NCBI RefSeq assembly: GCF_037013405.1
Contig: NZ_CP146064.1
Location: 1 to 32,000 of the forward strand
Length of the DNA stretch: 32,000 nt
Source: Candidatus Nanosynbacter sp. BB002
Lineage (GTDB): Bacteria; Patescibacteriota; Saccharimonadia; Saccharimonadales; Saccharimonadaceae
Reading direction: 5' to 3'
Part shown: positions 3,451 to 24,281 of the stretch, one piece after another
How positions within the stretch are numbered: the stretch's first letter is position 1
Layout of the letters: each line of letters opens with the position of its first letter
The notes under the pieces: model-generated
What the model was told of the DNA's origin: nothing
Database searches by the model: none
Seen by the model: the letters and a program-made list of their open reading frames with translations, nothing else
Made by a program: the position numbers and the translations under genes

Positions 3451-4683
3451 CTAGGTTTTGTTTGATTGAATGACGCGAACCAAGATATTACCTGGTTGAG
3501 TGAGTTGATAGTCAACAGATCCTTGCTTGATGAATATCGGTACTGTATCTCCAAGGGAGGCATTAGCGGCGACGTAACCTCCACCGACGTCACCAGTGTA
3601 AATTAAAGTATGTCCGTAGCCACCATGGCTTGGGTGGAGGAGGATATCACCTGGCTGCAAGTCTGAAGCAGATGGACGATCGATGATTTTGAATTTTTCT
3701 GGATGAGATTTTACGTAAGTATACTGATCAGTGGTGCCAATTGGCTGGTAATCTTTGTCTGCACCAGAAGTACGCAGCACCGTCGCTACAAATCTACCGC
3801 AGTCAGTGTCTGAACTACCGACGACACTTGGGTTATTCTTTTTGACTGCATCGATATATTCAGCTTTAGCCGTCTGGTTATTAGCCCCTTTGTCAGTATT
3901 TGGATTCCACGCCAACTGCTTGGCTGTATCGACGATGCTCTGCCCGGCGACACTAGACCCATTACCACTACAACCAGTTGCTGATGCTGAACTAATTTGT
4001 GCACCACTCGAATCACCACCGGCGCTTGCCGCGATTTTTGACGGATCGCCGTCTTGGATTTTACCCTTATAGCTGTTGAAAATCTCAGAGGCATACTGGG
4101 CACGGTTACCTTCTTCGCCTGCACCATAGCGCTCAAATGTTTCACCAAACTCAACCGCCAAAGCACTGACACTGCTACCCGATTTGTCAGTGTGTTTAAG
4201 TAGTACTTTCAGACCAGCATTTTCTGCCCCATTCAGCTCCTCCCAGAGGTATTCTAGCTGCCCTTCGATGGTACTGTAATTTGGCTTTTTTTCTAGATTA
4301 GTGCGGCGCCCACCCAGCCACTGCGCGATACCGTATGCACCAATACTGTTGAGGGCGCTCGGATCGATGCGAGATTCCTGCTGGAGGTTACCAGCCACCG
4401 CTGCTGCTTGTACTAACGTTAGACCCTTGCCGGTAAAAAACTTAAGAACTTTTTCTACGTTTTCACCAGAAAGTTCACCAGTCGCAGTATTTTGGGTTGA
4501 GCAGATTTGACCGTTTGGATTGTTGATATTGATGTCATTTAAAATATAGTCTTGGTAAGGAATACCGGCCGGTTGATCCTTCTTCTTTTCTTTATCTTTT
4601 TCTGGCGCTGCTGAGGAGTCGGCGGTCAAAAATATGACACAGCTCACTAAAGCTAGCAATAGACCGATAGTTACTCGTTTCAT
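3451..4683 (-). CDS. Secreted peptidoglycan hydrolase: lysozyme-like (phage-tail-lysozyme type) domain plus NlpC/P60- or CHAP-type cysteine peptidase domain
   Basis: The ORF runs to 4713, but the preferred start is the ATG at 4683 (MKRVTIGLLLALVSCVIF signal peptide, GGAGAG SD upstream, ATGA overlap with the upstream stop). Motif AAAVAGNLQQESRIDP...YGIAQW. C-terminal catalytic-type DCGRFV (Cys) and GYGHTLIY (His). Confidence 0.8.
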   Translation of the reverse strand: MKRVTIGLLLALVSCVIFLTADSSAAPEKDKEKKKDQPAGIPYQDYILNDININNPNGQICSTQNTATGELSGENVEKVLKFFTGKGLTLVQAAAVAGNLQQESRIDPSALNSIGAYGIAQWLGGRRTNLEKKPNYSTIEGQLEYLWEELNGAENAGLKVLLKHTDKSGSSVSALAVEFGETFERYGAGEEGNRAQYASEIFNSYKGKIQDGDPSKIAASAGGDSSGAQISSASATGCSGNGSSVAGQSIVDTAKQLAWNPNTDKGANNQTAKAEYIDAVKKNNPSVVGSSDTDCGRFVATVLRTSGADKDYQPIGTTDQYTYVKSHPEKFKIIDRPSASDLQPGDILLHPSHGGYGHTLIYTGDVGGGYVAANASLGDTVPIFIKQGSVDYQLTQPGNILVRVIQSNKT

Positions 4684-7600: not shown

Positions 7601-7694
7601 TCTCCATGGAGTTCAGATATTTAGACGTTTGTTCAGAGGCCGGATTGAGCCGTTCATCAACATCTGGATCAGTCGTATAATCAATTCGTGGCAT
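4680..7694 (-). CDS. Large membrane-anchored protein with C-terminal M15 (VanY / D-Ala-D-Ala carboxypeptidase-like, LAS family) zinc peptidase domain
   Basis: 1004-aa ORF. One N-proximal TM (GIGGGLFGLMMLFFTILPY) and a K/E-rich coiled-coil segment. The last ~130 aa carry SKHGHGLALD and EPWHWDY (VanY-type H-x6-D and H-x-H metal ligands). Starts 2 nt after the VirB4 stop. Confidence 0.8.
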   Translation of the reverse strand: MPRIDYTTDPDVDERLNPASEQTSKYLNSMENNAANDNFYDGDKKDDGLNAADSVNNQEQLYSRSPLGKSGNKKRGNLLANMTRKKWGATAGIGGGLFGLMMLFFTILPYKLDAMVSTITDQLSSVPQHAINQRLEYITTRWVAMKMMQTAYPGDANLVFCAGGGVLCHLGATKYSTWFEEQLDAKFEKEGRNVKAVFNASGRNTLGGKATSFTMHLESKDMNSVLQGVEKELSHKDMRRHIKKMTRKVHGRNYFMRYLSKRVLYRKYGVKKFNIIPEKAGQKYADFKAKIKLNMNTRITAKMSPRFAAYLGCLDGTDAKKCQDTLDKLNNDLDSKISEAEKEAEKATGDNKTKADEKVKKIKGQKEALNNIDSLSKAAPDTPLGKIISKQLFKKIAAANAIIGAIDLVAKIVGAVNEKVIEIVGADQKKQLYTAFTYDEEASPVLTRDQIRAGTIDNIQHVELATSLFDGAEAAPIFQATFGGNNTAASLLYPIAYAEDGGIRTKCEVGGEEKVVALDPGELVCPEKKIVKDYTTFTKYPVWQVLAGIAEAWNSTFGAIIDFVGDTVGKVFSWFFSYLQELPGLKQLVELSEGLIEKAMGWAVSLLFGIPEVGVDAPGNNNFEALHGGLTTTMQSSTEAGQAGADSGSKQPDGIGGARLTNQQVSVLAKQIEQERDEEFREQPLMAKLFDPTLKRSVAGQLLAVMPTSGFSTMRLIARAPVALASAITPTNTHAAKYDQAAVMRAFGVTWHGFTDKAVYKADPSQYTDAVCSTKAKEREASYGIHEGDLVPTYSVADPCALELTVAGNLALMADDKEGKYYPKEIDDPSANTGAQQPSSGPVGDAIGPPELEEAQTFGNEPASWGGHRNGEIPLSAMSELKTAPGHYMHPKAAQAFDAMNEAYAQEHGGQHMTITESYRTLATQQDYFSSGITQATPGTSKHGHGLALDINIGGSGFNTPIYLWLASNASKYGFVNPPWARDRNNPGWYKDEPWHWDYARRVQ

Positions 7695-7696
7695 AA

Positions 7697-9538
7697 TTAT
7701 ACTGCTCCATACCCACCAATTGGTGTTTCAGACGGAAGCTGTTGTTTTACAGGTGAAGTATTAATCAGATCATACTCGGTATCACTGGCTTGAATCTGGA
7801 TGTGCACGTGGTTTTGTCCAGCAAAGAACAGCCCCTGTCCAACGGGGAAATTCGCTAAGCGTTTCTGCTCTTCCTCGGTTAGCTTAAACACACTAGAAAG
7901 CACATCAACGGCACTGGATGATTGCTTGAGAAGGAGCTGCATGGATGAGTTGGCAACGATAGCGCGGCCCATTTTACTGCCCACAAAGTCCTCGACGTCC
8001 TGAGTGATGGTAGTGAGTCCTAGTTGATATTTTCGGGCTCGCTTAGCTAGGCTAAACAAGAAGCTAGCTGAGTCTTCATATTTCATCAATTGCCATGCCT
8101 CGTCAACGATCAACATACGCTTTTTCTGGTCGGTTCGAGTGATATTCCAGATGTGATTCAATACAATATACATAGCCGTTGGGCGTAGTTCATCTTCCAG
8201 ATCTCGGATGTTAAAGACTACCATGGCGTTATTGATATCGATATTACTCTGCTGACTGAAAATACCAGCAAAGGTACCTGAAGTAAATTTACGCAGACGC
8301 TGTGCTAACTGTGGACCAGTGCCGCCCATGTGTAGTAATGTATCATACAAATCATGAATGGTTGGCGGTGTTGAATTGTGGGTTAATGGGTCCGACGTGA
8401 TACCAACACGAGCATAGGTGTCGATCAGTGCCTGGTCGATATCTGCTTCCTCTGCCGCGGTTAGTCCGATAGAACCAGCTACTGAACCACCCAACATTTG
8501 ACGCAATAAACCGTGCAGCGTCACCAAATTAGCACGTAACGCGTCGTCTGCTTCTTCGGTGTCAATCACTCGCGGTAGATCAAATGGATTGATGCGCGTG
8601 TCACTATTCAAACTCAAGCGTATATGACTACCGCCCACGGCATCACATAGCTTTTGGTATTCATTTTCCGGGTCGATGATGACAATGTCAGCGCCAGTCA
8701 TCATACTACGCAGTGCTTCCAGTTTCACTGTAAACGACTTACCAGCACCAGACTTTGCAAACACCACCATGTTGGCATTTTCTAGAGAAAATCGGTCAAA
8801 GATCACCAAACCATTGTTATGCATATTGATGCCGTACAACACACCCTTACCGTCGGTTAGGTCAGCAGAGGTGAATGGGAAGCTGGTGGAAATAGCACCA
8901 GTGTTCATGTTGCGGCGGATTTGTAATTGATCCATCAACTGAGGAATGGTGCTGTTCAGTCCCTGTTCTTGCTGATTTGACGCCACTTTACTAAAGATCA
9001 GCTGCTGACCAAAGATAGTTTCAATTTTGTGTTGAATAAAGTTCAGCTCATCAAGGCTATCGGCATAAATCGTCACATATAGTCCGTAACGGAAGAATTT
9101 TTCTGACCCAATCTGTAGCTGGTTACGCAGTTCTTCGGCGTCCTGCAAGGCAGCTTCCATGGCCGGGTCACGCACACGCCCCTTCTCTGCGTTGATATTC
9201 ATACTAGCTTCCAACTGAGTCACTTTTTTACGCAAATTGTTCAGCACCACCTGAGTGTCGACCGGGTAGATAAACATGCTGATATCCAACACCTCGTCGA
9301 TATTAATCACCGAACTCAACCAGCCGGTGTAAATTTCACGAGGATAACCATAGACGTAAATAGTACGGCCATATTTGGCACCCAGTCGGAAATAACTTGC
9401 TTGAATTTCCACACTACTTGGGGCGATAAAATCTCGCAGAGTTCTCACGCCAGTCAAGAAAGCCTGCTCGACCTCAGCTTGTTCGCGAGCACGCTGTTGA
9501 GCGGCGATATCGATGGCATCTAGTTTTTTCTTAGCCAT
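7697..9538 (-). CDS. virB4: VirB4/TrbE-family type IV secretion ATPase (Gram-positive type, lacks the extreme N-terminal domain)
   Basis: 613-aa ORF. Walker A VFAKSGAGKSFTVK, Walker B MLIVDEAWQLM. N-region FIAPSSVEIQASYFRLGAKYGRTIYVYGYPREIYTGWL is typical of Firmicute VirB4 homologs. Strong SD GGAGGAG and a TAATG overlap with the upstream gene. Confidence 0.9.
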   Translation of the reverse strand: MAKKKLDAIDIAAQQRAREQAEVEQAFLTGVRTLRDFIAPSSVEIQASYFRLGAKYGRTIYVYGYPREIYTGWLSSVINIDEVLDISMFIYPVDTQVVLNNLRKKVTQLEASMNINAEKGRVRDPAMEAALQDAEELRNQLQIGSEKFFRYGLYVTIYADSLDELNFIQHKIETIFGQQLIFSKVASNQQEQGLNSTIPQLMDQLQIRRNMNTGAISTSFPFTSADLTDGKGVLYGINMHNNGLVIFDRFSLENANMVVFAKSGAGKSFTVKLEALRSMMTGADIVIIDPENEYQKLCDAVGGSHIRLSLNSDTRINPFDLPRVIDTEEADDALRANLVTLHGLLRQMLGGSVAGSIGLTAAEEADIDQALIDTYARVGITSDPLTHNSTPPTIHDLYDTLLHMGGTGPQLAQRLRKFTSGTFAGIFSQQSNIDINNAMVVFNIRDLEDELRPTAMYIVLNHIWNITRTDQKKRMLIVDEAWQLMKYEDSASFLFSLAKRARKYQLGLTTITQDVEDFVGSKMGRAIVANSSMQLLLKQSSSAVDVLSSVFKLTEEEQKRLANFPVGQGLFFAGQNHVHIQIQASDTEYDLINTSPVKQQLPSETPIGGYGAV

Positions 9539-10452
9539 TAAAAATCTCCTCCATATGGCGATTCACCATTTCCCTTACGGATGTAAGTCGTCGTCAGATC
9601 ATTTGGGTTGCGGACTAATGGCTGACGTGCTGCAGTGTCAGGATTGTAGGAAATATAGAACAATTCTCCAAGCTGCCTGGTGTTGAGTTGCAAACTCTTC
9701 ACGCCCATGGCAAACAAACCATTCATCACCGTATCGATGCGGTTTTTGATCTCATCTTTTGCTTTTTCGTACATCGGCTGATCAATCCTGGTAATCAACG
9801 TTTCCTTCTTACCACTAAAGAAACTGTCAAACAGACCCTTTGCCTGCTGTTTCATGGCATTAACATCGCCGCCGGGGAAATATGGCACCACGATGAAAAA
9901 TCGCTTATCCATAATGTTTGCCTCTTGCGACAGCACTTCTATGAAGTTCATATAGTCATCCATCAACACATTAAGTAACATATTGTCTTGAGAGCGTCGA
10001 ATACGTGACAATCGATCAAGGTATGGACCGATATCAACACGCTGTGATCGTACTAGGATTTGAACTGGAAAATAGAGCGAGTTGAGTAGGTTTTGATAGC
10101 TAAATTCGATAGCCTCTCGCTCACGAGTACTCATCAAATCAAAGTTGATGGATTGACATTCTATCACTGCTCGAAAACTGCCGTCACTCATGATGATCAT
10201 GTTTTCACGCATTTCTGAAAATAATAACGTATTTTGTGTACTGATGGCGCTCTTTTTGTCTTTAGGAGCTGGTGGATTCTGTGGATTTGGAGCTGGCTGA
10301 CCTGGCTGAGTTATACCAGGCTGCATTGGCAACGCTGGCTGACCAGGTTGTGGCTGTTGTGGCGGTAATGGCTGACTAGGCTGTCCAGAAACGACCGGCG
10401 GTGTCGTCGGGTTGGGTGGTAACTGATATGGTTGTTGATTATCTGGTTGCAT
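9538..10452 (-). CDS. T4SS-associated protein: P/Q-rich N-terminus plus a domain resembling the extreme N-terminal domain of full-length Gram-positive VirB4 ATPases
   Basis: 304-aa ORF. The first ~65 aa are almost only P/Q/G/N. The segment MIIMSDGSFRAVIECQSINFDLMSTREREAIEFSYQNLLNSLYFPVQILVRSQRVD resembles my recollection of VirB4 N-termini. No TM and no NTPase motifs. Translationally coupled to virB4. Confidence 0.5.
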   Translation of the reverse strand: MQPDNQQPYQLPPNPTTPPVVSGQPSQPLPPQQPQPGQPALPMQPGITQPGQPAPNPQNPPAPKDKKSAISTQNTLLFSEMRENMIIMSDGSFRAVIECQSINFDLMSTREREAIEFSYQNLLNSLYFPVQILVRSQRVDIGPYLDRLSRIRRSQDNMLLNVLMDDYMNFIEVLSQEANIMDKRFFIVVPYFPGGDVNAMKQQAKGLFDSFFSGKKETLITRIDQPMYEKAKDEIKNRIDTVMNGLFAMGVKSLQLNTRQLGELFYISYNPDTAARQPLVRNPNDLTTTYIRKGNGESPYGGDF

Positions 10453-10459
10453 TTCCCAC

Positions 10460-11389
10460 CTAGCGTAGTGAAATCACCACTTCCTCCTCAGCTGTTTCCT
10501 CTGAGCGTTTATGTATCCGATCTGCTTCTTTTTGTAGGGTCGCTATGGAAAGATCGGAATGATTATTTGCCAAATCTATTATACCAGGGTCAACAGGTTG
10601 TTGTATAGGTTGATTTTGGTCGGTTGGTGGCGTGACGGTAGGTCGTTCCCCTGCCGGAGACAGGACACCTTGACGCATGTGAGGGTACGGGTTGACGGTT
10701 AGTTTTGGTATATCTTCCTCTTGAGCTGCCATGAAAACTGCTGACTGAGTCGGCTGTTGTGTTGTTGGTGTTTGAGGTTTTTGCATGCGCTGTATCAACT
10801 GTTCTCGCCGCTGTTGGTCTGTCTCGGCGATCATATCAGCAATTTGTCGTGAAGTAGTGTTACCCCGATCTAAAATGTCTTCCTCTGCCTGAACGGCGGT
10901 ATTATAGAAATCAGCCTGTAGTGAACTGGCGGTATCTAAATTACCCGTTGCTTCCGGGTTGCCGACGCCGCGGACTGACCAGCCATGCGTGTCAACGATG
11001 TTTGCCAGATATGATAATCGTCGCTGGATCTCTCGTTGATCATAGTTCTTACTCAGGTTCTCTTCCTTAGTTTTTGGTGCTACCACTTCTATCAGCGTCT
11101 CTACTCCGTCTGGCTCCCAGAGCCGCACGCGCGGTTTTAAGAAAAATGATATCACTGCCGCAATATATATTTCCATCGGCTGTTCCTTACGTAGTGGCAA
11201 CGCTAATACGGTGAAAAACACCCCAAATGGCAAAGGAATGATTGCTAATGGTAACAAGGCGACTCCTAGCGCCCACGCTATACCAAAAAAGCCCACCGCG
11301 ATGATGAGAAACACAAATTGCTTAAAACTGAATGGCCCAAGCAGCTTGTCTTCTGCTTCCACATCCTGGGGCACTCTATACACAGCCAT
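10460..11389 (-). CDS. PrgI-family (VirB3-like) membrane protein with a long P/Q/T-rich C-terminal extension
   Basis: 309-aa ORF. N-terminus VYRVPQDVEAEDKLLGPFSFKQFVFLIIAVGFFGIAWALG followed by a second TM matches the PrgI-family pattern. The C-terminal half is low-complexity (QKPQTPTTQQPTQS, PTVTPPTDQNQPIQQPVDPG). Confidence 0.65.
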   Translation of the reverse strand: MAVYRVPQDVEAEDKLLGPFSFKQFVFLIIAVGFFGIAWALGVALLPLAIIPLPFGVFFTVLALPLRKEQPMEIYIAAVISFFLKPRVRLWEPDGVETLIEVVAPKTKEENLSKNYDQREIQRRLSYLANIVDTHGWSVRGVGNPEATGNLDTASSLQADFYNTAVQAEEDILDRGNTTSRQIADMIAETDQQRREQLIQRMQKPQTPTTQQPTQSAVFMAAQEEDIPKLTVNPYPHMRQGVLSPAGERPTVTPPTDQNQPIQQPVDPGIIDLANNHSDLSIATLQKEADRIHKRSEETAEEEVVISLR

Positions 11390-11397
11390 ATGCTACT

Positions 11398-11406
11398 AGT
11401 ATAGCA
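11398..11406 (-). promoter_or_regulatory. Extended -10 (TGcTATACT) 8 nt upstream of the PrgI-like ATG; internal, leaderless-type promoter candidate
   Basis: Minus-strand sequence of the 25-nt spacer is TCTTTGCTATACTAGTAGCAT-ATG, with no SD. Confidence 0.45.
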
Positions 11407-11414
11407 AAGATAGC

Positions 11415-13913
11415 TTAACTAGTTAAATCCTCAGGCTTAATCCCTAGAGAAAGAGATATCTCTCGAATTGTATTACCAGTTTTACCAATTCGACTACTAA
11501 ACCGAGGATCGGTTTGTGCCAAAACAAGGTTCTTGCGCAACGTATCCAGACCAGCTTCATTGATTTGCGAGACAAAGCTTTGGTCGCTCAACGCTTCCTT
11601 TAGTGGCTTTAGGTAAGCCAAGTCTGAACCGACAATTGCTTCGGTCGACAAACCACCGATGTTAAGGTTATCGAGCATAAGTTTCCTCATGTAGTCTGGG
11701 CCGTTCATATTAACATTGTTGGCCTTAATAGCCGCTGCAGCTGCACCACCTAACCAAGCTGGTTTAGCAGAGTTGGACAGCAGCGCGTCACCGTATTCTT
11801 GTGCAAAGTCGTCATTAAGCGCACCGAAGTCGGTTTTTTGCAGCAAGCTTTGGATGGCCACGGCATCTTTACCACCTAACACGTGGTGAATCGCTGCATA
11901 GCGGATATCATCAGTAACCGTCAAGCCGCGTCGACTAACACCATTGGCCAATTCCACCATATCATCATTGCTGACGTTCATGGCATTGAGAATAGTCATA
12001 GCGTTCTCAATCGATTCCTTATTAGCCTTAGTGATGGTGCTACGTGCCGTTGACCACACACGCTGTGAACCACGGTCGTTACCAAAGTACATATTTTCCA
12101 CTGAACCTGCTTGGGCTCGCAACTCCTCCTGGTTGGCTAGATCGTTTGCTAAGATGTAGTCATTAACGCGCTGAATACTGTTTTTTCGCAGTCCTTGAAT
12201 CGCAATACTACGCGCTTCTCGTTGAGTTTCTTCCTGTAGTGTTTCATAGCGGCGGGCAGCTCTCTTTTTCAGGTTGGCTGGTGTCGGTGTACCTTCAACT
12301 TTCATCTCCTCATAAGCGTTTGCGGTTGTGACATCAGCTAGTGATAATTGGTCAGCAGCAGCCCGTGACTCAATATCAGCAATTTGGTTGGCGCGGGAAA
12401 GCTTATAGGCTGCGTCAGCCCGTTTTTGGTAGGCTTCTGAACGAGTTTTGAATTTACGCGAGCGGTAATTAGCCCAGCGCCCCATTTTGCGGATGCCGCT
12501 GAATTTACTTAGTTCGTCGTCAGCTCTGCCCAATGAATTTTTATGAGCCGCCAATTGACTGCGGTCACGTGACCAGTTTTTAGTCCGGTCGATAACACCA
12601 CGGTTTTTATTATTAACGATACCAGCTACTCGACCCAGCACACCGCCGCTCAGCTTGAACACCAGTGGTGCGATGGCTAGGGCTGAAACTTGCACTGCCA
12701 GTCCTAAAATCACCATAATCCATGAATTGGCGTTTTGTAGGATGATTAATCCTGCCAGCTGCGCGCCACCAAATACCACTGAAAATGCTGGGAAAAATAT
12801 CACCAGGGTGAACATTAAGTTTCGCCATTTTTCAAAGAATTTCTCGGTGCCTGGTAACAGATAGCACACGAAAGCCAGCGGTGATATGACCGTTAAGATA
12901 ATCAATAATGCTTGTCGTGCCGCCAAGATGATGAATACAACTGTCAGAGTCAATAAGATACTGGCAATGATGGGCAGTAGCCAGTAAGCGGCTGAAGCTA
13001 ACGATCCGCCAGTTGCTGCCAGTGCGCCATATACGCCTGCAGTCGCTGCGCCACCAGACAGGACCATGGCCACCAAGTCGCTCCAAGTTGGTAGTGGAGC
13101 ACCATTAAACGCGCCGTTTGCCGACACTTGAGAACGGATTTCGTTAAACATATCTTGTAGGGCGACACCAAAGATATTTGACAGATCGATCATCGCAGCA
13201 CATATGATGAAAGACAGGTTAACTAAAATTGCGGCGATAACCACTCGTGGAACTAGTTTTTTAATACCATAGTTACTGATGCCAACTGAGGTTAGCTGTG
13301 AATAAATAACGATCAAAAAGGCGACGATGAACGCTGCATTGGCGATGTTTCGCATGATGTCCCAGGCGACCTTTACCCCAGAGCTATTGTTGGAGCTGTC
13401 TATCGCTGGTGTAGTCATCAGGTCGGAAATCCACGTGTACACTTCATCAATTCCTGAGGCGATTCCGTTAGAAATTGGGCAAATAAACCAACCCGTTCCC
13501 CCTCTCACGTCACATTCTGACTCACTAGGGTTACTGTCCTGTTTGACCTCGATATTCTCTGGTTCGCCTGACTGTGTTGGTGTACTGCCGTTTATGGTGT
13601 ATCTAGCGTATTTCGCGGTAGTAGCAGTTCGTGGATTGCTATTTCCAGCGAAAAATACCACTGTTGATTGATTGCCTTCGGTAGCCTCATAGACCCAGTC
13701 TTTACTGTCGCGACCAAGCAGTTTTTTACGAGCTGTGTCGTTAACTGGTTTGAGGGTTTTGCCATCAACGACCAGTGAGTCGCTTTTCCACTGAGCCTCA
13801 GCGGCATAAACTGAGGTAGAGTTGATGAGTATACCACTAAAAAACCCGACAAAAATACTAATAGTCAGTATGGCAAACCACTGCGACCGACGTATTTGCG
13901 GACGCACTCGCAT
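11415..13913 (-). CDS. VirB6/TrbL-like polytopic membrane protein, paralog 2, with a long cytoplasmic C-terminal domain
   Basis: The ORF extends to 13946. The start at 13913 (MRVRPQIRRSQWFAIL) is preferred because GGAG lies 9 nt upstream. It has a periplasmic/external ~150-aa domain, then motif GGTGWFICPI, then 6 or more hydrophobic helices (NIANAAFIVAFLIVIYSQLTSVGISNYGIKKLVPRVVIAAILVNLSF). A ~400-aa soluble tail is paralogous to that of the next gene. Confidence 0.7.
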   Translation of the reverse strand: MRVRPQIRRSQWFAILTISIFVGFFSGILINSTSVYAAEAQWKSDSLVVDGKTLKPVNDTARKKLLGRDSKDWVYEATEGNQSTVVFFAGNSNPRTATTAKYARYTINGSTPTQSGEPENIEVKQDSNPSESECDVRGGTGWFICPISNGIASGIDEVYTWISDLMTTPAIDSSNNSSGVKVAWDIMRNIANAAFIVAFLIVIYSQLTSVGISNYGIKKLVPRVVIAAILVNLSFIICAAMIDLSNIFGVALQDMFNEIRSQVSANGAFNGAPLPTWSDLVAMVLSGGAATAGVYGALAATGGSLASAAYWLLPIIASILLTLTVVFIILAARQALLIILTVISPLAFVCYLLPGTEKFFEKWRNLMFTLVIFFPAFSVVFGGAQLAGLIILQNANSWIMVILGLAVQVSALAIAPLVFKLSGGVLGRVAGIVNNKNRGVIDRTKNWSRDRSQLAAHKNSLGRADDELSKFSGIRKMGRWANYRSRKFKTRSEAYQKRADAAYKLSRANQIADIESRAAADQLSLADVTTANAYEEMKVEGTPTPANLKKRAARRYETLQEETQREARSIAIQGLRKNSIQRVNDYILANDLANQEELRAQAGSVENMYFGNDRGSQRVWSTARSTITKANKESIENAMTILNAMNVSNDDMVELANGVSRRGLTVTDDIRYAAIHHVLGGKDAVAIQSLLQKTDFGALNDDFAQEYGDALLSNSAKPAWLGGAAAAAIKANNVNMNGPDYMRKLMLDNLNIGGLSTEAIVGSDLAYLKPLKEALSDQSFVSQINEAGLDTLRKNLVLAQTDPRFSSRIGKTGNTIREISLSLGIKPEDLTS

Positions 13914-13975
13914 TTTCAACCACTCCATTACTGTAAATGGTAGCATTTTTTAGCGTAAAAGTCAACTATATGAAT

Positions 13976-16900
13976 CTATCGGCCAAACGCAGTAGGCGGT
14001 CGGTTGCGTCGGTGCTGTGACCGTCCAGTGCCACTGGTGCCACCCTGGTCAATATAGCTCGGTGGAATACTGGTAGCACTCGTCGGATCAGAGGATCTGT
14101 CTACCTGCACAGTAACGTTAACCTGTGGAGCTGGAGCTTGTGTTTGACCACCTGAAGACAATGAATCTGGCTTTGGAGCTTCTACTCCTCGTGCCTGCTC
14201 TTTGATGGCGTAGTAGCGATCAGGAGTCATGCTTGGTGCCTGAGAAGGTGTTGGCTGTGCCACGCCCTGTGGAGCTTGATTTTGCTGCAATGGTGGTACG
14301 GATAATGATTCTGCGGGTATTGATGTTGATAACTTTTTCATTTTAGACGTTGACATTTTTAAGGCCATAGATTCAAAGATATCAGCAGATTCGGCACTAG
14401 CTTGACTGAGATTTCGTGAATTATTTGCGACTTTCTTTGCTTTTTCTACTGTTAATCCACCTTCGTTTATGGCATCAGTAAGAGCGCTTGCACTTTGAGT
14501 AGCAAGTGTTTCGGTGGATAAGCCGCCCACAGACTTGCTTGTCATGGCTGCCAACTCATCACTAGTAACACTATAGCTTTTATTCCCTTCACCTATTGCA
14601 TCAAACCCTGCAACACCGGCTGCGGCTACTCCAGCATCGTACTTCTTTACATTGCCGAGGGCCTTCCCCATCTCGATACTGGTAATTGCTCCGCCGCTTT
14701 CTAGATATTTACGTAATTGTCCTGCGCCCCAGGCGCCCGAGTTGGATAATTCTTCTGCTGCTGCTGCTTGAACGTATTTGTCATCTGACCGTAGAGCTTT
14801 AGCTAAATTACCGTTATATTCAAACCGCAATTTTTTGGCTGCAGCTTCTTGAGATAGTTTATGAATATACTCTTGACCACCAGTAGTAGCTGCCGCAAAC
14901 CCAAGCCGCTTATCCAGTTCACTTCCAGAAGCTTCAGCCAGCCCTTCTCGGTAGCGCTGCTGTTCGCTTTGTTCTGCCAGAGCTGCTCGGGTTTCTCGGT
15001 CGAGTGAACGTTGGTTTATCTTTCTAAAGCCCCGTTGCAGACCACCACTCCAGACACGTCTAGGAGCCTTACTCTTGCTAAAATCTTTCGCCATAAATTC
15101 ACGACGTTTCATACCTGCTCGACGTTTAGCAAACTTACTTCCTGCATTAAGCGCTGGTGCTGATGCCTTGTTCAATAGTCCATTTGCCCGCCCCATCAGG
15201 TTGCCGATGATAGCATTGGATTTCAGTGCCATACCAAGGATGACGAAAGTACCAGCAAATAAAAGTGCCAAAGCCATCAGTTGTTGTACCACTCCGCCGG
15301 TTTTGTCAGCAAGGGCAGTAAAGGCTAATAATTTTAATCCGCCGTAGTATATTGCCGCCAAAGGATAGAGGAAGACCATACCGGTGAAGACTTTTTTCCA
15401 CTTGTCAAAGACACTTTGGGTGTTTGGTAAAATCCAAGCTGCAAATGCCAATGGAGCTAAGATTGCCAGCACCGGTATCACTGCTGATCGAAATACCAAT
15501 GCTAACAACCCTGAGACGATGCCGATCACACCTGGAACGATTGCCATAAGCACAAACATAAACAGGGTTCCAATCCCGAAAACTGAGGCAGCAATTGTTC
15601 CACCAATTAGTGTCGCTCCAGCCGCCGTGCCGCCACCTGCTAAAATTGCTGTCAATAAGGCGCCCCAACCAACATCTTTGTAACTCATATTTTGTATCGG
15701 AGCTGTAATGATTCCTAGCAGAGTACTACCAAGGATGTTTGCGGTATCAACGATGACTTGGATGACAAAGTAGGATATATTCACTGCAACCGCAGCGATG
15801 ATGAAACGAGGTAGCATTTTCTTGATGCCGTAGTTAGAGATACCGACATTTGATACTTGTGAGATAATAATCAAGATAAATACCAGTGCTAACAAGACAT
15901 TAGCAAGGTCTCGCATAGTTTTCCAAGCATCATATGTATTTCCTGTTGCCTGCAAGGGACTTGTAACTAAATATTCTTCTAACATCCCCCAGACCGAGTC
16001 GGCAAAGTCAGCCAGTTTGTCAATAACTGGGCAGATAAACCACCCGATACCCGTTAGTTCACTAGTACACGTTTTTTCCTCTTTTTCTTCTCCTGCCCCC
16101 TCGGTCGACTGTGCTGTAGCGTCAGCGCTTTGCTCCGGAGTATCCCCTACGGAAAGTTCCTTCTGTTCATCTTTATGTTCAGACGCATATTTGGCAAACT
16201 TATCAAAAGCACCCCTGTTGTTTTGGAGCCAAGAACCGATATCGCTACAGCTTACTTCGACTAATCCTCCCTCAGTGTCGTCGGTTGCTGCCAACCAGAC
16301 TTTTTCATTACCCTTGGAAGTCTTATAAATCATGTCGGCGGTTTTGCCACCTGTACTGGTAAATGGAATTTTGTAGTAATAATACCCCGAGCTATCTGGA
16401 TTTTCTTTAGGGATTTCCTTGAGAGATTTATCACCGCTAGCAGAACAACCGCTAGCAGAACTAGTAAATGTTTTTGAATACATATACCATTGTTCGGCGC
16501 TGCCTGAAGCTATAGAAGGTAGGCTGCCGGTGGCATTTTTGATACCGTCTTTGAAACGTTCTTTAATGGCCGCGCCACCCTTTTTTGGTGCACAACCACC
16601 CGGAGGATTTTCGTCAGGAGCTAAATTACTACTAGAATAGTAAACAGTGTATGAAGTAAAATAATTTGGTTTTGATACACTCCGTAAGTCGTTAACATTT
16701 TGTGTAAAACGACCCCAGGAATTCCATTCATACTTTTTACATCTTTCCCAATTTCGAAATACCCAGCCAGCTTTGGTTTGATCAATAAAAAATTTACCAC
16801 CCATATGCCGGTAGAAGTCAGCATATTTAGAAGAGCCCTCCCAAATATCAATCCCCGCTTTTAGGAGGCTAGCACAGCTGAGATCTCCACCGATTTGTTT

Positions 16901-17230
16901 TGTGATGGGGTCGACGCCTGAGTAGGATTTAATACCGCCTTTAGTATTTTTTCCCACAAAGGTATTTGCACGCTCCTCATTATCACCGTTAGATGGCGCC
17001 CAGTTAGAGTCGGTGCTTGTCGTGTTTCTATACCGCATCCCCTCGAAATCGGTCATACATGTCCAATCGTTGGTGCCACGCTTCATTAAATTAGCGTAAA
17101 GTAGTGTTGATTCAACTTTTTGCTTTAACTTCAAACTTTTTGCAGCTTCTGCCTGCGGAGCAAGTAACACCGCTGATATAAGTGCCACTACTAGTGTGGA
17201 GAGTACTATCAACCCTCGCTTTTTACTCAT
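13976..17230 (-). CDS. VirB6/TrbL-like polytopic membrane protein, paralog 1, with a large Cys-containing extracellular N-domain and a P/Q-rich C-terminus
   Basis: The ORF extends to 17263. The start at 17230 (MSKKRGLIVLSTLVVALISAVLLAPQAEA signal peptide) is preferred. After a ~390-aa exported domain come TGIGWFICPV and DLANVLLALVFILIIISQVSNVGISNYGIKKMLPRFIIAAVAVNISYF, which are clearly paralogous to 11415-13913. Long C-terminal tail. Confidence 0.7.
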   Translation of the reverse strand: MSKKRGLIVLSTLVVALISAVLLAPQAEAAKSLKLKQKVESTLLYANLMKRGTNDWTCMTDFEGMRYRNTTSTDSNWAPSNGDNEERANTFVGKNTKGGIKSYSGVDPITKQIGGDLSCASLLKAGIDIWEGSSKYADFYRHMGGKFFIDQTKAGWVFRNWERCKKYEWNSWGRFTQNVNDLRSVSKPNYFTSYTVYYSSSNLAPDENPPGGCAPKKGGAAIKERFKDGIKNATGSLPSIASGSAEQWYMYSKTFTSSASGCSASGDKSLKEIPKENPDSSGYYYYKIPFTSTGGKTADMIYKTSKGNEKVWLAATDDTEGGLVEVSCSDIGSWLQNNRGAFDKFAKYASEHKDEQKELSVGDTPEQSADATAQSTEGAGEEKEEKTCTSELTGIGWFICPVIDKLADFADSVWGMLEEYLVTSPLQATGNTYDAWKTMRDLANVLLALVFILIIISQVSNVGISNYGIKKMLPRFIIAAVAVNISYFVIQVIVDTANILGSTLLGIITAPIQNMSYKDVGWGALLTAILAGGGTAAGATLIGGTIAASVFGIGTLFMFVLMAIVPGVIGIVSGLLALVFRSAVIPVLAILAPLAFAAWILPNTQSVFDKWKKVFTGMVFLYPLAAIYYGGLKLLAFTALADKTGGVVQQLMALALLFAGTFVILGMALKSNAIIGNLMGRANGLLNKASAPALNAGSKFAKRRAGMKRREFMAKDFSKSKAPRRVWSGGLQRGFRKINQRSLDRETRAALAEQSEQQRYREGLAEASGSELDKRLGFAAATTGGQEYIHKLSQEAAAKKLRFEYNGNLAKALRSDDKYVQAAAAEELSNSGAWGAGQLRKYLESGGAITSIEMGKALGNVKKYDAGVAAAGVAGFDAIGEGNKSYSVTSDELAAMTSKSVGGLSTETLATQSASALTDAINEGGLTVEKAKKVANNSRNLSQASAESADIFESMALKMSTSKMKKLSTSIPAESLSVPPLQQNQAPQGVAQPTPSQAPSMTPDRYYAIKEQARGVEAPKPDSLSSGGQTQAPAPQVNVTVQVDRSSDPTSATSIPPSYIDQGGTSGTGRSQHRRNRPPTAFGR

Positions 17231-17254
17231 GTTTTGATGCCCTTTCAGAAAAAA

Positions 17255-17283
17255 CATATACACTACAAATTGTAGTGTATATG
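17255..17283 (-). terminator. Perfect 29-bp palindrome (14-bp arms) followed by T6 on the minus strand: terminator of the lipoprotein gene and/or operator in front of the VirB6-like genes
   Basis: Sequence is CATATACACTACAA-A-TTGTAGTGTATATG. On the minus strand it is followed by TTTTTTCTG. It lies between the stop at 17315 and the start at 17230. Confidence 0.55.
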
Positions 17284-17314
17284 TCTCAAAAGCGCAAATG
17301 CTTAGAAAGTCGGC

Positions 17315-18370
17315 TTACGCTTTACCTTCTTCACGCAATTTTGAATACGGAACATTTTCTTTACGACTAAACTCTAGCTCGCTAATAACAACAGTACCAG
17401 GGCCGATTTTCTTAAATGTAACATTACCCTGCATACCGCCAACTCCAGCTGTTAGTACCCATTCCACAGGCATCGTACCAACGCTATTATTAGCAAGGAA
17501 ATCAGTAATTTTCTCAGAATGCTGGGCGCCATTATCTGGTCGGAATGAGAAAGTCATAGAAATAGTATCACCATCGTATTTTGGCTCACCATGTTCCATT
17601 CCTGCAATAGTGACAGGCCCCAATATCATTTCTGGGTCTATTGGGTTCGTATAGGCCGTCCTGTGAAGACCATTCTCATCATTTTCAAGGTGAGTGCTGT
17701 AATCGATCCGTAATGCTTCTTGTGCATCTATAAGATTTTCCAAGAGACTCTTGAAACCATTCCCGTACTTAATTGGTTGTGATTTTCCACGTGCGTCATT
17801 GCCTGGAGTTTCAAAAACTCCTTTTATGCGATTGAGGATATATGGGGTTAGTGTTGATCCGAAAGTAGGAGGTGTGCTGTTTGCAGAACGATCTTTCTGT
17901 GCCAAATAACTGAACCTTTTTTCGTCATATACCCTACTATATTCAGATGACGGTGGATTTTCCTGATCTTTTTTATCAGCAACTACGTTAACTGTTGTTT
18001 CAATTATAGTACTCAGGTGTCGCATTAATTCGTCGGGGCTTTCGAAAGCACTAACGGGAATGGTTAATTTCTTAGCCTCTTCTTCAGGGAATCTTGTGTC
18101 TACATACGATTCGCAAAGCTCTACCTCTGTTGAAGGATCTAGGTCCAGTGTACGCATCCCTTCAGGAGTTGGAGACACTTCTGGTGAAGGACTGTTCTCT
18201 GCATGCTCAGGCAGTTGTCCTGATGTTTGTTCTGATGTAGTTTCTTTCTTACTACCGCAGGCTGTTAAAGCCATCGCTCCAGCACTGGTCACAAAAAGAC
18301 CCAGGACCCCTCGGCGGTTTATTTCATATACTGATGTTTCTTGTGAATCGCTTGGGTTATACTCTTTCAT
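17315..18370 (-). CDS. Putative Tat-type lipoprotein of unknown function, first gene of the minus-strand T4SS-like cluster
   Basis: 351-aa ORF. N-terminus EINRRGVLGLFVTSAGAMALTACGSKKE has a twin-arginine-like motif, an h-region and an L-T-A-C lipobox. I do not recognise any family in the remainder. Confidence 0.7.
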   Translation of the reverse strand: MKEYNPSDSQETSVYEINRRGVLGLFVTSAGAMALTACGSKKETTSEQTSGQLPEHAENSPSPEVSPTPEGMRTLDLDPSTEVELCESYVDTRFPEEEAKKLTIPVSAFESPDELMRHLSTIIETTVNVVADKKDQENPPSSEYSRVYDEKRFSYLAQKDRSANSTPPTFGSTLTPYILNRIKGVFETPGNDARGKSQPIKYGNGFKSLLENLIDAQEALRIDYSTHLENDENGLHRTAYTNPIDPEMILGPVTIAGMEHGEPKYDGDTISMTFSFRPDNGAQHSEKITDFLANNSVGTMPVEWVLTAGVGGMQGNVTFKKIGPGTVVISELEFSRKENVPYSKLREEGKA

Positions 18371-18594: not shown

Positions 18595-18660
18595 ATGTCA
18601 ACTAGCTCGATAATACCAAAGACTTCCCTAATATTCAAGAGCCATCAGGTGAAATGTTGT

Positions 18661-18689
18661 TTGCATTTTGCGTGACAATATCTTACAAT
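18661..18689 (+). promoter_or_regulatory. Sigma70-type promoter of the pilin operon (TTGCAT-17 nt-TACAAT)
   Basis: -35 TTGCAT at 18661-18666, 17-nt spacer, -10 TACAAT at 18684-18689. Lies about 38 nt upstream of the ATG at 18727. Confidence 0.5.
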
Positions 18690-18726: not shown

Positions 18727-19116
18727 ATGATAAACAGAAATTTCTTTACAAAAACCATCATTGCTGTAGCCCTACTAGTCGGTTTTACTGTTTCAGCTCC
18801 GGTATTTGCTGAGGAGGAGGGTGCGAAGAAATGTGCTGGCGTCGATACTTCAACCATAGAATGTGGCGGTAAAAGCGGTAAAGAGGCTATCTTTGATATC
18901 GTTAAACAGGCGGTAAAAATTTTAACCATGGGTGTAGGTGTCACAGCTGTTGGTGCGGTAGTTTATGGTGGCATATTATTTTCATCATCTGGAGATAAGC
19001 CAGAAAATATCAAAAAAGCTCGCGAGATCTGGATCAATGTTGTGATAGGGTTGCTGCTATACGCCTTCTTTGTCACGCTGACTCAATTCTTAATTCCAGG
19101 AGGAGTATTCTCATGA
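18727..19116 (+). CDS. VirB2/TrbC-like T4SS pilin paralog P1
   Basis: 129 aa. Signal peptide (AVALLVGFTVSAPVFA), variable region with two Cys (KKCAGVDTSTIECGG), TM1, loop YGGILFSSSGDKPENIKKAREIW, TM2. Stop overlaps the P2 start (ATGA). Confidence 0.7.
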   Translation: MINRNFFTKTIIAVALLVGFTVSAPVFAEEEGAKKCAGVDTSTIECGGKSGKEAIFDIVKQAVKILTMGVGVTAVGAVVYGGILFSSSGDKPENIKKAREIWINVVIGLLLYAFFVTLTQFLIPGGVFS

Positions 19117-19538
19117 TCAAACGGGCAATTATAGCAGTTACTTTGGTGTTTATAGGTAGCTTTGGTATGGCATTTGTCAGCACACAACCTGCCTTAGCTG
19201 GTGCTTGTGATGAACGTGGTCGTGTTATAACTCTAAAACCTTGGTTTTATAACTTAACATCTGGTAATTCGTGTGATTTAAAGAGTCCGAGTGAGGCTGG
19301 TGGTTTTGGCCCATACATCTGGCAAATTGCCTTAAACCTTATTGAAGATTTATTCCAAATCACGGGTTATATTGCAGCAGGATACATTATATACGGTGGT
19401 TTTCTGTTCATCACCAGCTCAGGATCACCAGATCGAGCGGTTCGTGGACGAAAAACAGTTTTTAATGCCATTATTGGCTTAGTTATAGCTATCGCCTCAG
19501 TAGGTGTAGTAAACTGGGTATCAGGAGCATTATTGTAA
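19113..19538 (+). CDS. VirB2/TrbC-like T4SS pilin paralog P2
   Basis: 141 aa. Signal peptide ending PALA-GA, two Cys (GACDERG...GNSCDLK), TM1, loop YGGFLFITSSGSPDRAVRGRKTVFNAIIG, TM2. Confidence 0.7.
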   Translation: MIKRAIIAVTLVFIGSFGMAFVSTQPALAGACDERGRVITLKPWFYNLTSGNSCDLKSPSEAGGFGPYIWQIALNLIEDLFQITGYIAAGYIIYGGFLFITSSGSPDRAVRGRKTVFNAIIGLVIAIASVGVVNWVSGALL

Positions 19539-19540
19539 CT

Positions 19541-19837
19541 ATGGAAAAGTTTATCGTTCAAATTGTTAGCCAACTAGGTTCCCCAAGTGACGTAGGAATT
19601 CCTGATCGTAAAGATGATAAGGTGGCATTACAAAGTATAGCGAACCTGGTGTTTGCTATCTCAGCGGTCGTAGCTATCATTTCCATCATCATCTATGGCA
19701 TCATGTATAGTGTATCCGCTGGTGATCCAGGCAAAGTCTCGAAAGCTAAAAACGGTATCATCTATTCGGTGGTTGGTTTGCTGGTGGTATGGTGCGCTTT
19801 TGTTATTACAAATTATGTCGCAGGGAGGTTTAACTAA
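19541..19837 (+). CDS. VirB2/TrbC-like pilin paralog P3, without a recognisable signal peptide
   Basis: 98 aa. Only the two-TM core with loop YGIMYSVSAGDPGKVSKAKNGIIYSVVG. The N-terminus MEKFIVQIVSQLGSPSDVGIPDRKDD is not signal-like. Starts 2 nt after P2, and its stop overlaps the P4 start (TAATG). Confidence 0.6.
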   Translation: MEKFIVQIVSQLGSPSDVGIPDRKDDKVALQSIANLVFAISAVVAIISIIIYGIMYSVSAGDPGKVSKAKNGIIYSVVGLLVVWCAFVITNYVAGRFN

Positions 19838-20211
19838 TGAAAAAAATCGTAACTATTACCGCTACTCTGGCTCTCGCCATAGTCGGTGGTTTTTTGCTGT
19901 CACAAACTGCTTCAGCGGTTGGTATTTATGACGCGTGTAGTACCGATCCAAATAACATTGTCTGTGCTAACAGTAGTGAATCAGTTGACCCGGTCATCAA
20001 AACAGTCATCAGATATCTGCTGATTATCTCTGGTATTGTATCAGTTGTGATGGTTATCATTGGTGGGTTGAAATACAGCACCTCCAATGGCGACAGTGCT
20101 AAGCTAAGCTCTGCTAAGAACACTATCATGTACGCCATCATTGGCGTGATCATCTCTGCTCTTGCGTATGCTATCGTTGATTACGTATTTCTTCGCATAA
20201 TTGGTAAATAG
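19837..20211 (+). CDS. VirB2/TrbC-like T4SS pilin paralog P4
   Basis: 124 aa. Signal peptide ending TASA, two Cys (DACSTDPNNIVCAN), TM1, loop GGLKYSTSNGDSAKLSSAKNTIMYAIIG, TM2. Confidence 0.75.
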   Translation: MKKIVTITATLALAIVGGFLLSQTASAVGIYDACSTDPNNIVCANSSESVDPVIKTVIRYLLIISGIVSVVMVIIGGLKYSTSNGDSAKLSSAKNTIMYAIIGVIISALAYAIVDYVFLRIIGK

Positions 20212-20243
20212 AGCCCAACACAGTATAGACAGACCGTAAAATA

Positions 20244-20252
20244 TGGTATAAT
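20244..20252 (+). promoter_or_regulatory. Extended -10 promoter (TGgTATAAT) for pilin paralog P5
   Basis: Sequence is aaatatGGTATAATgaag, about 45 nt upstream of the ATG at 20298. SD AAGGAAAGGAA lies in the leader. Confidence 0.55.
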
Positions 20253-20297
20253 GAAGTAAAATAACAATCAATTTCCCAAGGAAAGGAAACGAAATTC

Positions 20298-20678
20298 ATG
20301 AAAAAAACCATTATTAAAATAGCTGGCGCGTTTGCCCTTCCTGTGCTGGTTATGGGTGTCGTATTTTTGGCTTCTGGCGACAATGCATTTGCGCAGGTTC
20401 GAGAAGGTTTGAACAAGGTTCAAAACGCCAATACTGGTGCTAGTGCTAACGTTGACGACATCATCTCAAAGTCAATTAACTTTGCATTGATGGCGATTGC
20501 TATCGTATCTGTGTTTATGTTGATCCTTGGTGGTTTCAAATACACCACATCAAACGGTGACAGTGCTAAGGTGACGTCTGCTAAGAATACCATTATGTAC
20601 TCCTTGATCGGTCTGTTGATTGCTATCTTTGCCTACGCTATCGTTAACTTTGTGGTCAATAAGGTTACCGGTAACTAA
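20298..20678 (+). CDS. VirB2/TrbC-like T4SS pilin paralog P5 (own promoter, SD and terminator)
   Basis: 126 aa. Signal peptide ending NAFA, no Cys, TM1, loop GGFKYTTSNGDSAKVTSAKNTIMYSLIG, TM2. Confidence 0.8.
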   Translation: MKKTIIKIAGAFALPVLVMGVVFLASGDNAFAQVREGLNKVQNANTGASANVDDIISKSINFALMAIAIVSVFMLILGGFKYTTSNGDSAKVTSAKNTIMYSLIGLLIAIFAYAIVNFVVNKVTGN

Positions 20679-20694
20679 TCACCTAGTTACATCT

Positions 20695-20728
20695 CAAAAA
20701 ACACCAGTCATTACGACTGGTGTTTTTA
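20695..20728. terminator. Bidirectional rho-independent terminator between P5 (+) and hsp20 (-)
   Basis: AAAAAA-ACACCAGTC-ATTAC-GACTGGTGT-TTTTT: a 9-bp GC-containing stem flanked by A and T tracts. Confidence 0.8.
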
Positions 20729-23818: not shown

Positions 23819-24220
23819 CTAGACGTCGGTAGAACCGCCGCTGACGGCGAAGTTAATGACGAACTTGATGATGGCATAGGCAAAAAGAGCAATCAATAGA
23901 CCAATCACGGCATATAAGATGGTGTTTTTGGCGGCAGTAACTGATTCTTTTCGTCCACCGGATATGACGTAGCGAAAACCACCAAAGATAAGCATTACCA
24001 CGCTGACCACAGCGATACCGATCAGCATGAAGTTAATAACCCGACGCACCAGAGAGCTGTCACCATTCCACAGGTTGGTTGGCACGCCATTGCCGCGAGC
24101 TGCCTCTACACCTTCTGCAAAACCACCCTCACCAAGTGCCAGAGCCGGTAGACTAGTGATGGTTAATGCTAACACGGTCGTTATGATGATGCTTGCGCCA
24201 ACGGTTACAATCTTCTTCAT
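23819..24220 (-). CDS. VirB2/TrbC-like T4SS pilin paralog P6 (distal copy in the tRNA island)
   Basis: The ORF extends to 24289. The start MKKIVTVGASIIITTVLALTITSLPALA at 24220 is preferred. Loop GGFRYVISGGRKESVTAAKNTILYAVIG lies between two TMs. A TAATAT box sits 7 nt upstream of the ATG. Confidence 0.75.
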   Translation of the reverse strand: MKKIVTVGASIIITTVLALTITSLPALALGEGGFAEGVEAARGNGVPTNLWNGDSSLVRRVINFMLIGIAVVSVVMLIFGGFRYVISGGRKESVTAAKNTILYAVIGLLIALFAYAIIKFVINFAVSGGSTDV

Positions 24221-24281
24221 AATAGTTATATTATCCTTGGTTGGTAGAAAAAAGTCAACGCTATGGTATTTTGTACAGGTG

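Follow-up and report, generated by a model that had tools for sequence, protein, structure and literature searches.

The pilin array of an origin-proximal type IV secretion system in Candidatus Nanosynbacter sp. BB002 and its counterparts in Saccharimonadia

Published pilin arrays and the BB002 locus

Arrays of small pilin-family genes beside a type IV secretion system (T4SS) have been described in Saccharibacteria (PMC7427843, PMC10633639, PMC12102498, PMC12857230). The locus considered here, six small open reading frames (ORFs) in the first 32,000 nucleotides (the window) of contig NZ_CP146064.1 from Candidatus Nanosynbacter sp. BB002, re-identifies this published locus; the novelty implied in a preliminary description of the same DNA does not hold. 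McLean et al. 2020 (PMC7427843) reported the array in the sister strain Nanosynbacter lyticus TM7x and in Saccharibacteria as four to six small proteins with Sec signals encoded beside the T4SS, and interpreted these proteins as secreted subunits similar to those of pertussis toxin. Wang et al. 2023 (PMC10633639) noted that T4SSs of Gram-positive bacteria are generally without a pilus. Quinonero-Coronel et al. 2025 (PMC12102498) identified 441 arrays of 2 to 11 pilin genes in 383 Patescibacteria assemblies, with a mean identity of 25% (maximum, 54%); these were most abundant in Saccharimonadia, with the T4SS near dnaA, and it was suggested that pilin diversity may help adaptation to different hosts.

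The BB002 locus resembles those of Southlakia epibionticum ML1 (PMC10633639) and TM7x (PMC7427843) in the family of its small proteins (PF18895), in their placement after VirB4, PrgI and VirB6-like genes near dnaA, and in what lies downstream, an Hsp20 gene (−), a ComF-like gene (+) and then a separate pilin gene on the opposite strand. A short leaderless third gene is also shared with ML1 (312 bp in ML1). ML1 differs in having six tandem genes, compared with five in BB002, and the BB002 locus is known from its sequence alone. In TM7x, six genes are labelled ptx-like A to F, against the five tandem genes of BB002. As in the arrays of PMC12102498, divergent tandem pilin genes of a member of the Saccharimonadia lie near virB4 and the T4SS lies near dnaA. 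The locus is an array as defined there (at least two tandem pilin genes near virB4), and its context is likewise that of a chromosomal, relaxase-less, mating-pair formation (MPF)-FATA-like monoderm T4SS with PrgI and a weak TrsD match. What is added here refines the published finding, namely, fixed orthologous classes with their signatures, a class-wide promoter for one of them, purifying selection, and the variability of a neighboring lipoprotein. In the portions of the ML1 and TM7x reports that were consulted (PMC10633639, PMC7427843), no description of the class structure, the Cys pairs or this promoter was found.

BB002 is an oral Saccharibacterium (TM7, Patescibacteria) with a chromosome of ∼804 kb. 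Position 1 of the window is the ATG of dnaA, which is followed by dnaN. All eight proteins looked up (those of the six small ORFs, VirB4 and DnaA) were identical to NCBI proteins of Candidatus Nanosynbacter sp. BB002. The five tandem ORFs (P1 to P5) occupy positions 18727 to 20678 on the forward strand, ∼20 kb from dnaA, and the sixth (P6) occupies 23819 to 24220 on the reverse strand, so that the T4SS and the pilin array all lie inside 25 kb of the presumed origin. These six genes are a chromosomal T4SS pilin array of Saccharimonadia, adjoining an origin-proximal T4SS of monoderm type. Their features are as follows.

18727..19116, +, P1, 129 aa: signal peptide, exported Cys pair (CAGVDTSTIEC), two-helix core, C-terminal LIPGGVFS typical of the P1 class
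19113..19538, +, P2, 141 aa: signal peptide, Cys pair around a PWF/PWY motif, two-helix core
19541..19837, +, P3, 98 aa: no signal peptide, short acidic N-tail, two-helix core; named "pilin" by NCBI
19837..20211, +, P4, 124 aa: signal peptide, Cys pair (YDACSTDPNNIVC), two-helix core
20298..20678, +, P5, 126 aa: signal peptide, two-helix core, no Cys; candidate for the major subunit
23819..24220, −, P6, 133 aa: signal peptide, two-helix core, exported GVEAARGNGVPTNL motif, no Cys; a separate gene at a distance of 3.1 kb from the tandem genes

All six proteins scored above the gathering cut-off of the Pfam family T4SS_pilin (PF18895; 26.6 bits), with 33.9, 31.7, 48.5, 40.2, 41.3 and 31.2 bits for P1 to P6, respectively (E values, 2e−7 to 9e−13), and all 42 members of an alignment of relatives matched the same profile. 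A hidden Markov model (HMM) built from the six ORFs found exactly these six and no seventh among window ORFs of at least 50 aa. The six ORFs of the preliminary description therefore exist and form one family by both profiles, and its assignment of them as T4SS pilins stands, given a pilin-profile match in every member and the adjoining T4SS cluster. Pairwise amino acid identity ranged from 23 to 48%, with P4, P5 and P6 mutually closest (46 to 48%), and the six-protein alignment contained only three invariant columns. The inter-helix loop motif proposed earlier for all six is thus a loose consensus, which fits P3 to P6 well but P1 and P2 poorly.

Cysteine pairs were located at C36/C46 in P1, C32/C54 in P2 and C34/C43 in P4, with none in P5 or P6, exactly as previously counted; P3 has a single Cys, in the second transmembrane segment (TM2). 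Equally sound was the earlier reading of P3 as lacking a signal peptide. It has no N-terminal hydrophobic segment, and this is not an artifact of start codon choice, because no other start codon lies between the preceding in-frame stop and its ATG. In an AlphaFold2 (AF2) model of P5, a core hairpin (H52-83/H89-124; predicted local distance difference test [pLDDT], 83 to 90) lies behind the signal-peptide helix, and hydropathy segments of 265 relatives agree with a C-terminal two-helix hairpin. For P6, the ATG at 24220 is favored as the true start because a promoter-like site falls inside the longer ORF that begins at a TTG; the NCBI protein, WP_338520847.1, likewise has 133 aa.

These features bear on two other identities for the six proteins. 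The 2020 reading of TM7x holds that they are an array of effectors, pertussis-toxin-like subunits exported via the T4SS. That reading was proposed in PMC7427843 and used in TM7x transcriptome annotations, and it agrees with the signal peptides on five of the six proteins and with their position beside T4SS genes. However, each of the six is a T4SS_pilin member with a pair of hydrophobic helices at its C-terminal end, neither a toxin domain nor an enzyme domain (as expected of an ADP-ribosyltransferase subunit) was detected in them, and later papers reinterpret the array proteins as pilins, so that a role as secreted effectors is highly improbable. Holin-like small membrane proteins, an alternative raised in the preliminary description, were also considered and rejected; no holin family was found among Pfam matches at E values of ≤1, and the genomic context is a chromosomal T4SS with housekeeping genes.

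The T4SS cluster itself was recognized from Pfam and NCBIfam matches, and its gene set is that of the published Saccharibacteria T4SS. Its features are as follows.

3451..18370, −, monoderm-type T4SS cluster
3451..4713, −, lysozyme-like protein (Phage_lysozyme2), of cell-wall hydrolase type, at the head of the cluster
4680..7694, −, VanY-domain protein, 1,004 aa, with a C-terminal VanY domain, of cell-wall hydrolase type, also at the head of the cluster
7697..9538, −, VirB4-like ATPase (P-loop_TraG/AAA_10), 9.2 kb from the tandem array in the same cluster
9538..10452, −, TrsD-like protein, 304 aa, between VirB4 and PrgI, with weak matches to TrsD/TraD and to VirB4 models over their N-terminal part
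10460..11389, −, PrgI/VirB3-like protein (PF12666), by domain match
11415..13946 and 13976..17263, −, two large membrane proteins without family matches
17315..18370, −, putative lipoprotein, 351 aa, variable, with a twin-arginine translocation (TAT)-like/lipobox N-terminus (RRGVLGLFVTSAGAMALTAC)

From its weak matches and position, the 304-aa ORF probably encodes the TrsD-like component that Patescibacteria T4SSs are reported to contain. No relaxase domain was identified among the window ORFs scanned for domains. Beyond the 351-aa ORF, the gene order is tRNA-Asp, the five tandem pilin ORFs (+), a convergent Hsp20 gene, the ComF-like gene (+), RlmH, tRNAs and the sixth pilin ORF (−).

Gene classes, selection and a variable neighbor

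To compare the array between genomes, a scan with one genome per species was used, which yielded 70 related loci, essentially all from Saccharibacteria. The order of P1, P2, P3, a position-4 gene and P5 on one strand, followed by P6 on the other, recurs in 49 diverged loci. P1-type genes encode an exported region of variable length and a C-terminal (I/V)PGG(V/L)F, P2-type genes a Cys pair around PWY, P3-type genes a short protein with no signal peptide, and position-4 genes a Cys pair. After a gap of ∼70 to 100 nt come one or two P5-type genes without Cys. A P6-type gene, encoding the motif G(V)EAARG.G.PT.L, lies 1.5 to 3.5 kb away and usually on the other strand; most related loci have such a gene downstream of the array in opposite orientation. 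When the proteins were clustered without supervision (reciprocal best hits between loci, followed by Louvain community detection), the communities mapped onto array positions. For 250 of 265 pilins of the diverged genomes, the nearest relative lay in another genome and not among the paralogs of their own locus, and this held for every member of the P1 (19/19), P2 (43/43) and P3 (41/41) classes.

Architecture follows the same division. Only two hydrophobic segments were present in each of the 41 P3-class proteins. Exactly two exported Cys residues were identified in 30 of 43 P2-class proteins, 30 of 35 in the P4 class and 27 of 28 in an equivalent class at position 4, while P1-class proteins have two, four or six and keep the P1 motifs in 19 orthologs. 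Cys was absent from 40 of 47 P5-class and 35 of 45 P6-class proteins. On this comparison, the three architecture classes put forward in the preliminary description are real, old and conserved across Saccharimonadia, and the paralogs represent ancient orthologous classes whose gene order is fixed, not recent copies.

Several observations concern individual classes. The P1-class C-terminus after TM2 (positions 19090 to 19113 in the window) is almost invariant as (I/V)PGG(V/L/I)F in loci L019, L029, L056, L038 and L059, among others, and could possibly be a processing or recognition site. The exported N-region of the same class varies between genera from ∼30 to >150 residues. P6-class proteins commonly share 42 to 62% identity (BLAST) with their window paralog, against 30 to 55% for the other classes, and by this informal comparison are somewhat better conserved between genera; their motifs are the exported G(V)EAARG.G.PT.L and a C-terminal GG(S/T)(T/N)(D/E)V. 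Gene number and placement also vary. The Nanosynbacter group has five tandem genes plus one, loci L020, L030, L038 and L059 and, from the literature, S. epibionticum have six or seven tandem pilins (an extra P5/P6-like gene in the array) plus the opposite-strand P6, and in Nanosyncoccus-like loci the P1-class gene is displaced beyond P6 and lies on the other strand. Directly downstream of P6 in BB002 (32 nt, same strand) is a strongly conserved ORF for a 165-aa protein with two TM segments (23289 to 23786, −), whose ratio of nonsynonymous to synonymous substitution rates (dN/dS) is 0.036. In Nanosynbacteraceae-like loci, and only there, its homolog follows the P6-class gene directly and in the same direction; other loci have it nearby in a different orientation.

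Selection was assessed by computing dN/dS against 18 species-level Nanosynbacter genomes. Values for P1 to P6 were 0.076, 0.091, 0.072, 0.057, 0.025 and 0.041, respectively, lowest in P5 and comparable to those of the neighboring housekeeping genes for Hsp20 (0.055) and RlmH (0.095). By this measure, all six pilins are under strong purifying selection.

P4 and P5 had been described as about four-fifths identical at the nucleotide level over 66 nt of the loop-coding region, and the best such window (20056 to 20121 against 20523 to 20588) was indeed 80.3% identical. The recent duplication or gene conversion that this was taken to suggest is not borne out. Identical codons at identical residues numbered 24, compared with 18.9 expected from local codon usage, and third codon positions in the loop largely differ, so gene conversion between P4 and P5 was rejected. 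The similarity of the two loops thus reflects constraint at the protein level, in line with the proximity of most pilins to counterparts in other genomes.

The same data bear on the idea, also present in the preliminary description, that the paralogs are interchangeable variants that diversify the cell surface for host-range switching or immune evasion. In Bartonella and Anaplasma, several virB2-like genes per locus have been interpreted as encoding variable surface antigens (cited in PMC12102498), a comparable idea was offered for Patescibacteria in PMC12102498, and the paralogs within the BB002 array are highly divergent (23 to 48% identity). Unlike the Bartonella and Anaplasma paralogs, however, and at odds with host adaptation as suggested in PMC12102498, the BB002 paralogs are conserved, ordered and constrained, each class being orthologous and in fixed order across genera with dN/dS between 0.025 and 0.09. 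In transposon sequencing (Tn-seq) of S. epibionticum, each of the six tandem pilins (SEML1_0014 to SEML1_0019) was essential, and SEML1_0024, the separate opposite-strand pilin and positional equivalent of P6, was nonessential (PMC10633639). Because dN/dS is low, the classes are fixed, no conversion signal was seen and the tandem pilins are individually essential, the proteins would be nonredundant subunits instead of interchangeable, antigenic or host-range variants. A variation system is thereby very unlikely and largely refuted by this analysis.

A fast evolver among close genomes was identified next to the pilins instead, namely, the 351-aa putative lipoprotein. Across 16 close Nanosynbacter genomes, its mean amino acid identity was 56% and its dN/dS was 0.41, while the genes flanking it were 93 to 99% identical. 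No BLAST match to it was found in 52 diverged loci, and it matched no Pfam or NCBIfam family. From this pattern, it is a candidate determinant of host specificity or surface variation. A second variable ORF, acidic, of 96 aa and with a TTG start (22738 to 23028, +), had a dN/dS of 0.50, shared 76% identity among close genomes and matched in only 3 of the 52 diverged loci; either this small protein evolves fast or the ORF is no genuine gene.

Expression signals of the array

The preliminary description of P1 to P4 as tightly coupled was confirmed at each junction. P1 and P2 overlap at ATGA, P2 and P3 are separated by 2 nt, P3 and P4 overlap at TAATG, and a GGAG-type Shine-Dalgarno (SD) sequence precedes each gene. 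P1-P4-type genes were packed tightly or overlapped in all related loci compared. The putative signals around the array are as follows.

18660..18689, +, promoter-like site TTTGCA-18-TACAAT, candidate promoter of a P1-P4(-P5) operon; 9/12 in a consensus scan, a pattern match only
20244..20252, +, extended −10 element TGGTATAAT in the 86-nt gap between P4 and P5, candidate P5-specific promoter; read directly
20697..20727, either strand, hairpin and U-run (read as an A-run from the opposite strand), located between the convergent P5 and Hsp20 genes; ΔG of −20.2 kcal/mol, z score of −5.5
24230..24258, −, P6 promoter-like site TTGACT-17-GATAAT; 10/12 matches

The consensus scan for promoters and terminators missed both the extended −10 element of P5, for which there was no −35 match, and its terminator; the two were established by sequence reading, conservation and folding. 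The extended −10 element was identical in 18 of 18 close genomes. In the diverged loci, TGnTAnAAT was located 34 to 54 nt upstream of the start codon of 29 of 53 P5-class genes, often accompanied by a −35 of TTG type and the ribosome-binding site AAAGGAA. Of 200 shuffled sequences, none was as stable as the hairpin, which is likely a bidirectional intrinsic terminator. As judged from these signals, the P5 class has a conserved route to expression apart from the coupled P1-P4 set, as a major subunit with low-copy minor partners would require. The promoter-like element and terminator assigned to P5 in the preliminary description are therefore present, but its SD sequence, AAGGAAAGGAAA, is moderate and not, as described there, strong. 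Among promoter-like sites for P6, the best ends only 10 nt before the ATG at 24220; transcription from it, if it occurs, would give an almost leaderless mRNA.

Because P5 has its own conserved extended −10 element, a terminator and the lowest dN/dS, it is likely the major pilin, with P1 to P4 as minor subunits. The earlier proposal of P5 as the major subunit fits a promoter conserved across genera and the highest constraint of the six.

VirB2 likeness and models of subunit function

The pilins of diderm VirB2/TrbC/TraA systems (T-pilus, RP4 and F-like) offer the nearest model for how such proteins might work. Like them, the BB002 proteins are small, with a two-helix hairpin that follows a signal peptide, and are encoded with VirB4 and VirB3-like genes; their similarity to the corresponding profile is below threshold. 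The diderm systems differ in that they normally have one pilin gene, BB002 is a monoderm, and no VirB5 tip protein or cyclase was identified at the BB002 locus. None of the six proteins reached the cut-off of PF04956 (27.9 bits), the best being P4 (20.3), P3 (18.2) and P2 (14.8), and 24 of 42 relatives matched it at E values of ≤0.01 (best, 9.3e−7). Such scores indicate similarity at the level of a superfamily, not membership. When the family was compared by hhalign with Agrobacterium-type VirB2/TrbC proteins (eight annotated sequences), TM1 and the mature N-terminus were in register, at a probability of 5% and a P value of 0.0075, which is not significant. A Foldseek search of the PDB with the AF2 model of P5 gave a best E value of 0.38, also not significant, a two-helix hairpin modelled with its signal peptide being uninformative in this respect, and profiles of two family alignments searched against PDB chain sequences returned chance matches only (SecE, MacB and ubiquinol oxidase subunit 2). 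NF045849, the Mbov_0395 pilin-like family of a Mycoplasma integrative and conjugative element (ICE), scored 18.7 to 33.1 bits with P2 to P6, below its cut-off of 40 bits, and appears to be a distant relative. On profile evidence, then, the six proteins are T4SS_pilin members and not demonstrated members of PF04956; T4SS_pilin proteins are probably distant relatives of VirB2-type pilins and, by analogy, may work like them.

The explanation favored overall, and held to be somewhat probable, is that the fixed classes form a heteromeric VirB2-type tube with P5 as its shaft and P1 to P4 as minor subunits. P1, P2, P4, P5 and P6 would be exported by Sec and cleaved by signal peptidase at AXA-type sites after residues 27 to 32, and P3, which has a short acidic N-tail, would insert into the membrane without a leader. 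All six would then span the membrane as hairpins with both termini outside, the conserved basic, lysine-rich loop facing the cytoplasm in keeping with the positive-inside rule. A machine powered by VirB4 would pull subunits from the membrane into a short heteromeric tube, in which P5 would make up the shaft and P1 to P4 would be low-copy, nonredundant minor subunits for the tip, priming or base, with exposed, disulfide-stabilized exported segments on P1, P2 and P4. P6 would be a separately transcribed accessory, alternative or condition-specific subunit. The tube could serve as a conduit to the host Actinobacterium and as the basis of epibiotic growth, as related species suggest. A parallel exists in the sets of minor pilins known from type IV pili and from the pseudopili of type II secretion systems, in which one abundant major subunit is accompanied by several cotranscribed, individually required, low-copy subunits whose exported parts are distinct; this is an analogy only, as the fold and assembly machinery of type IV pili and type II pseudopili are unrelated.

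The width of conjugative pili spans a range that includes 8.6 to 9.0 nm. Cryo-electron tomography (cryo-ET) of Mycosynbacter amalyticus identified a tube 8.6 to 9.0 nm wide and 61 to 70 nm long, with a "barb" at its tip, that runs from the epibiont's inner membrane to the host and was not assigned to genes. This tube may be the physical counterpart of the pilin array. The fuller proposal, of one heteromeric VirB2-type organelle in which P5 builds the 9-nm tube and the disulfide-bearing P1, P2 and P4 form a tip or priming complex with the leaderless P3, and which is the lance or conduit with a barbed tip seen by cryo-ET, is tentative and on balance doubtful. If true, this organelle would be the first case of a minor-pilin set in a T4SS pilus, and physically the tube by which episymbiotic Patescibacteria feed or inject.

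Several points weigh against a P5-built tube. No pilus of these proteins has been observed, and monoderm T4SSs are generally without pili (PMC12102498, PMC10633639). Homology to bona fide VirB2 is weak, as the sub-threshold PF04956 scores, the nonsignificant hhalign result and the lack of significant PDB matches indicate. The promoter and terminator of P5 are sequence predictions, and for the abundance of P5 relative to P1 to P4, the TM7x transcriptome data, in which several array genes are up in stable symbiosis, are log ratios only. Finally, P6 belongs to the class that appears most conserved across genera, yet its equivalent is dispensable in S. epibionticum coculture, which the model leaves unexplained.

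The main rival draws on some of the same points. According to it, the hairpins stay in the membrane, where they form or line a translocation channel or a stalk that spans the cell wall, each class at a defined position and with no pilus. The generally pilus-free state of monoderm T4SSs and the lack of any filament tied to these genes agree with it; fixed classes, individual essentiality and strong constraint fit a stoichiometric complex equally well; and the sub-threshold similarity to "pilin-like" ICE proteins of mycoplasmas, which are wall-less bacteria, points the same way. A separate conserved promoter for one class, however, suggests a large excess of one subunit, as for a polymer, and a 9-nm tube with a distinct tip is present in a related species of Saccharimonadia. 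With these set against it, a purely membrane-resident role is considered rather unlikely, and the heteromeric tube remains the preferred explanation.

Saccharibacteria cannot live as epibionts without the T4SS and its pilin array. Fixed, nonredundant classes shift the useful targets toward localization and depletion of specific subunits and away from surveys of strain variation, with P5, marked by the conserved promoter of its class, as the first. Host specificity may be better sought in the neighboring hypervariable lipoprotein than in the pilins.

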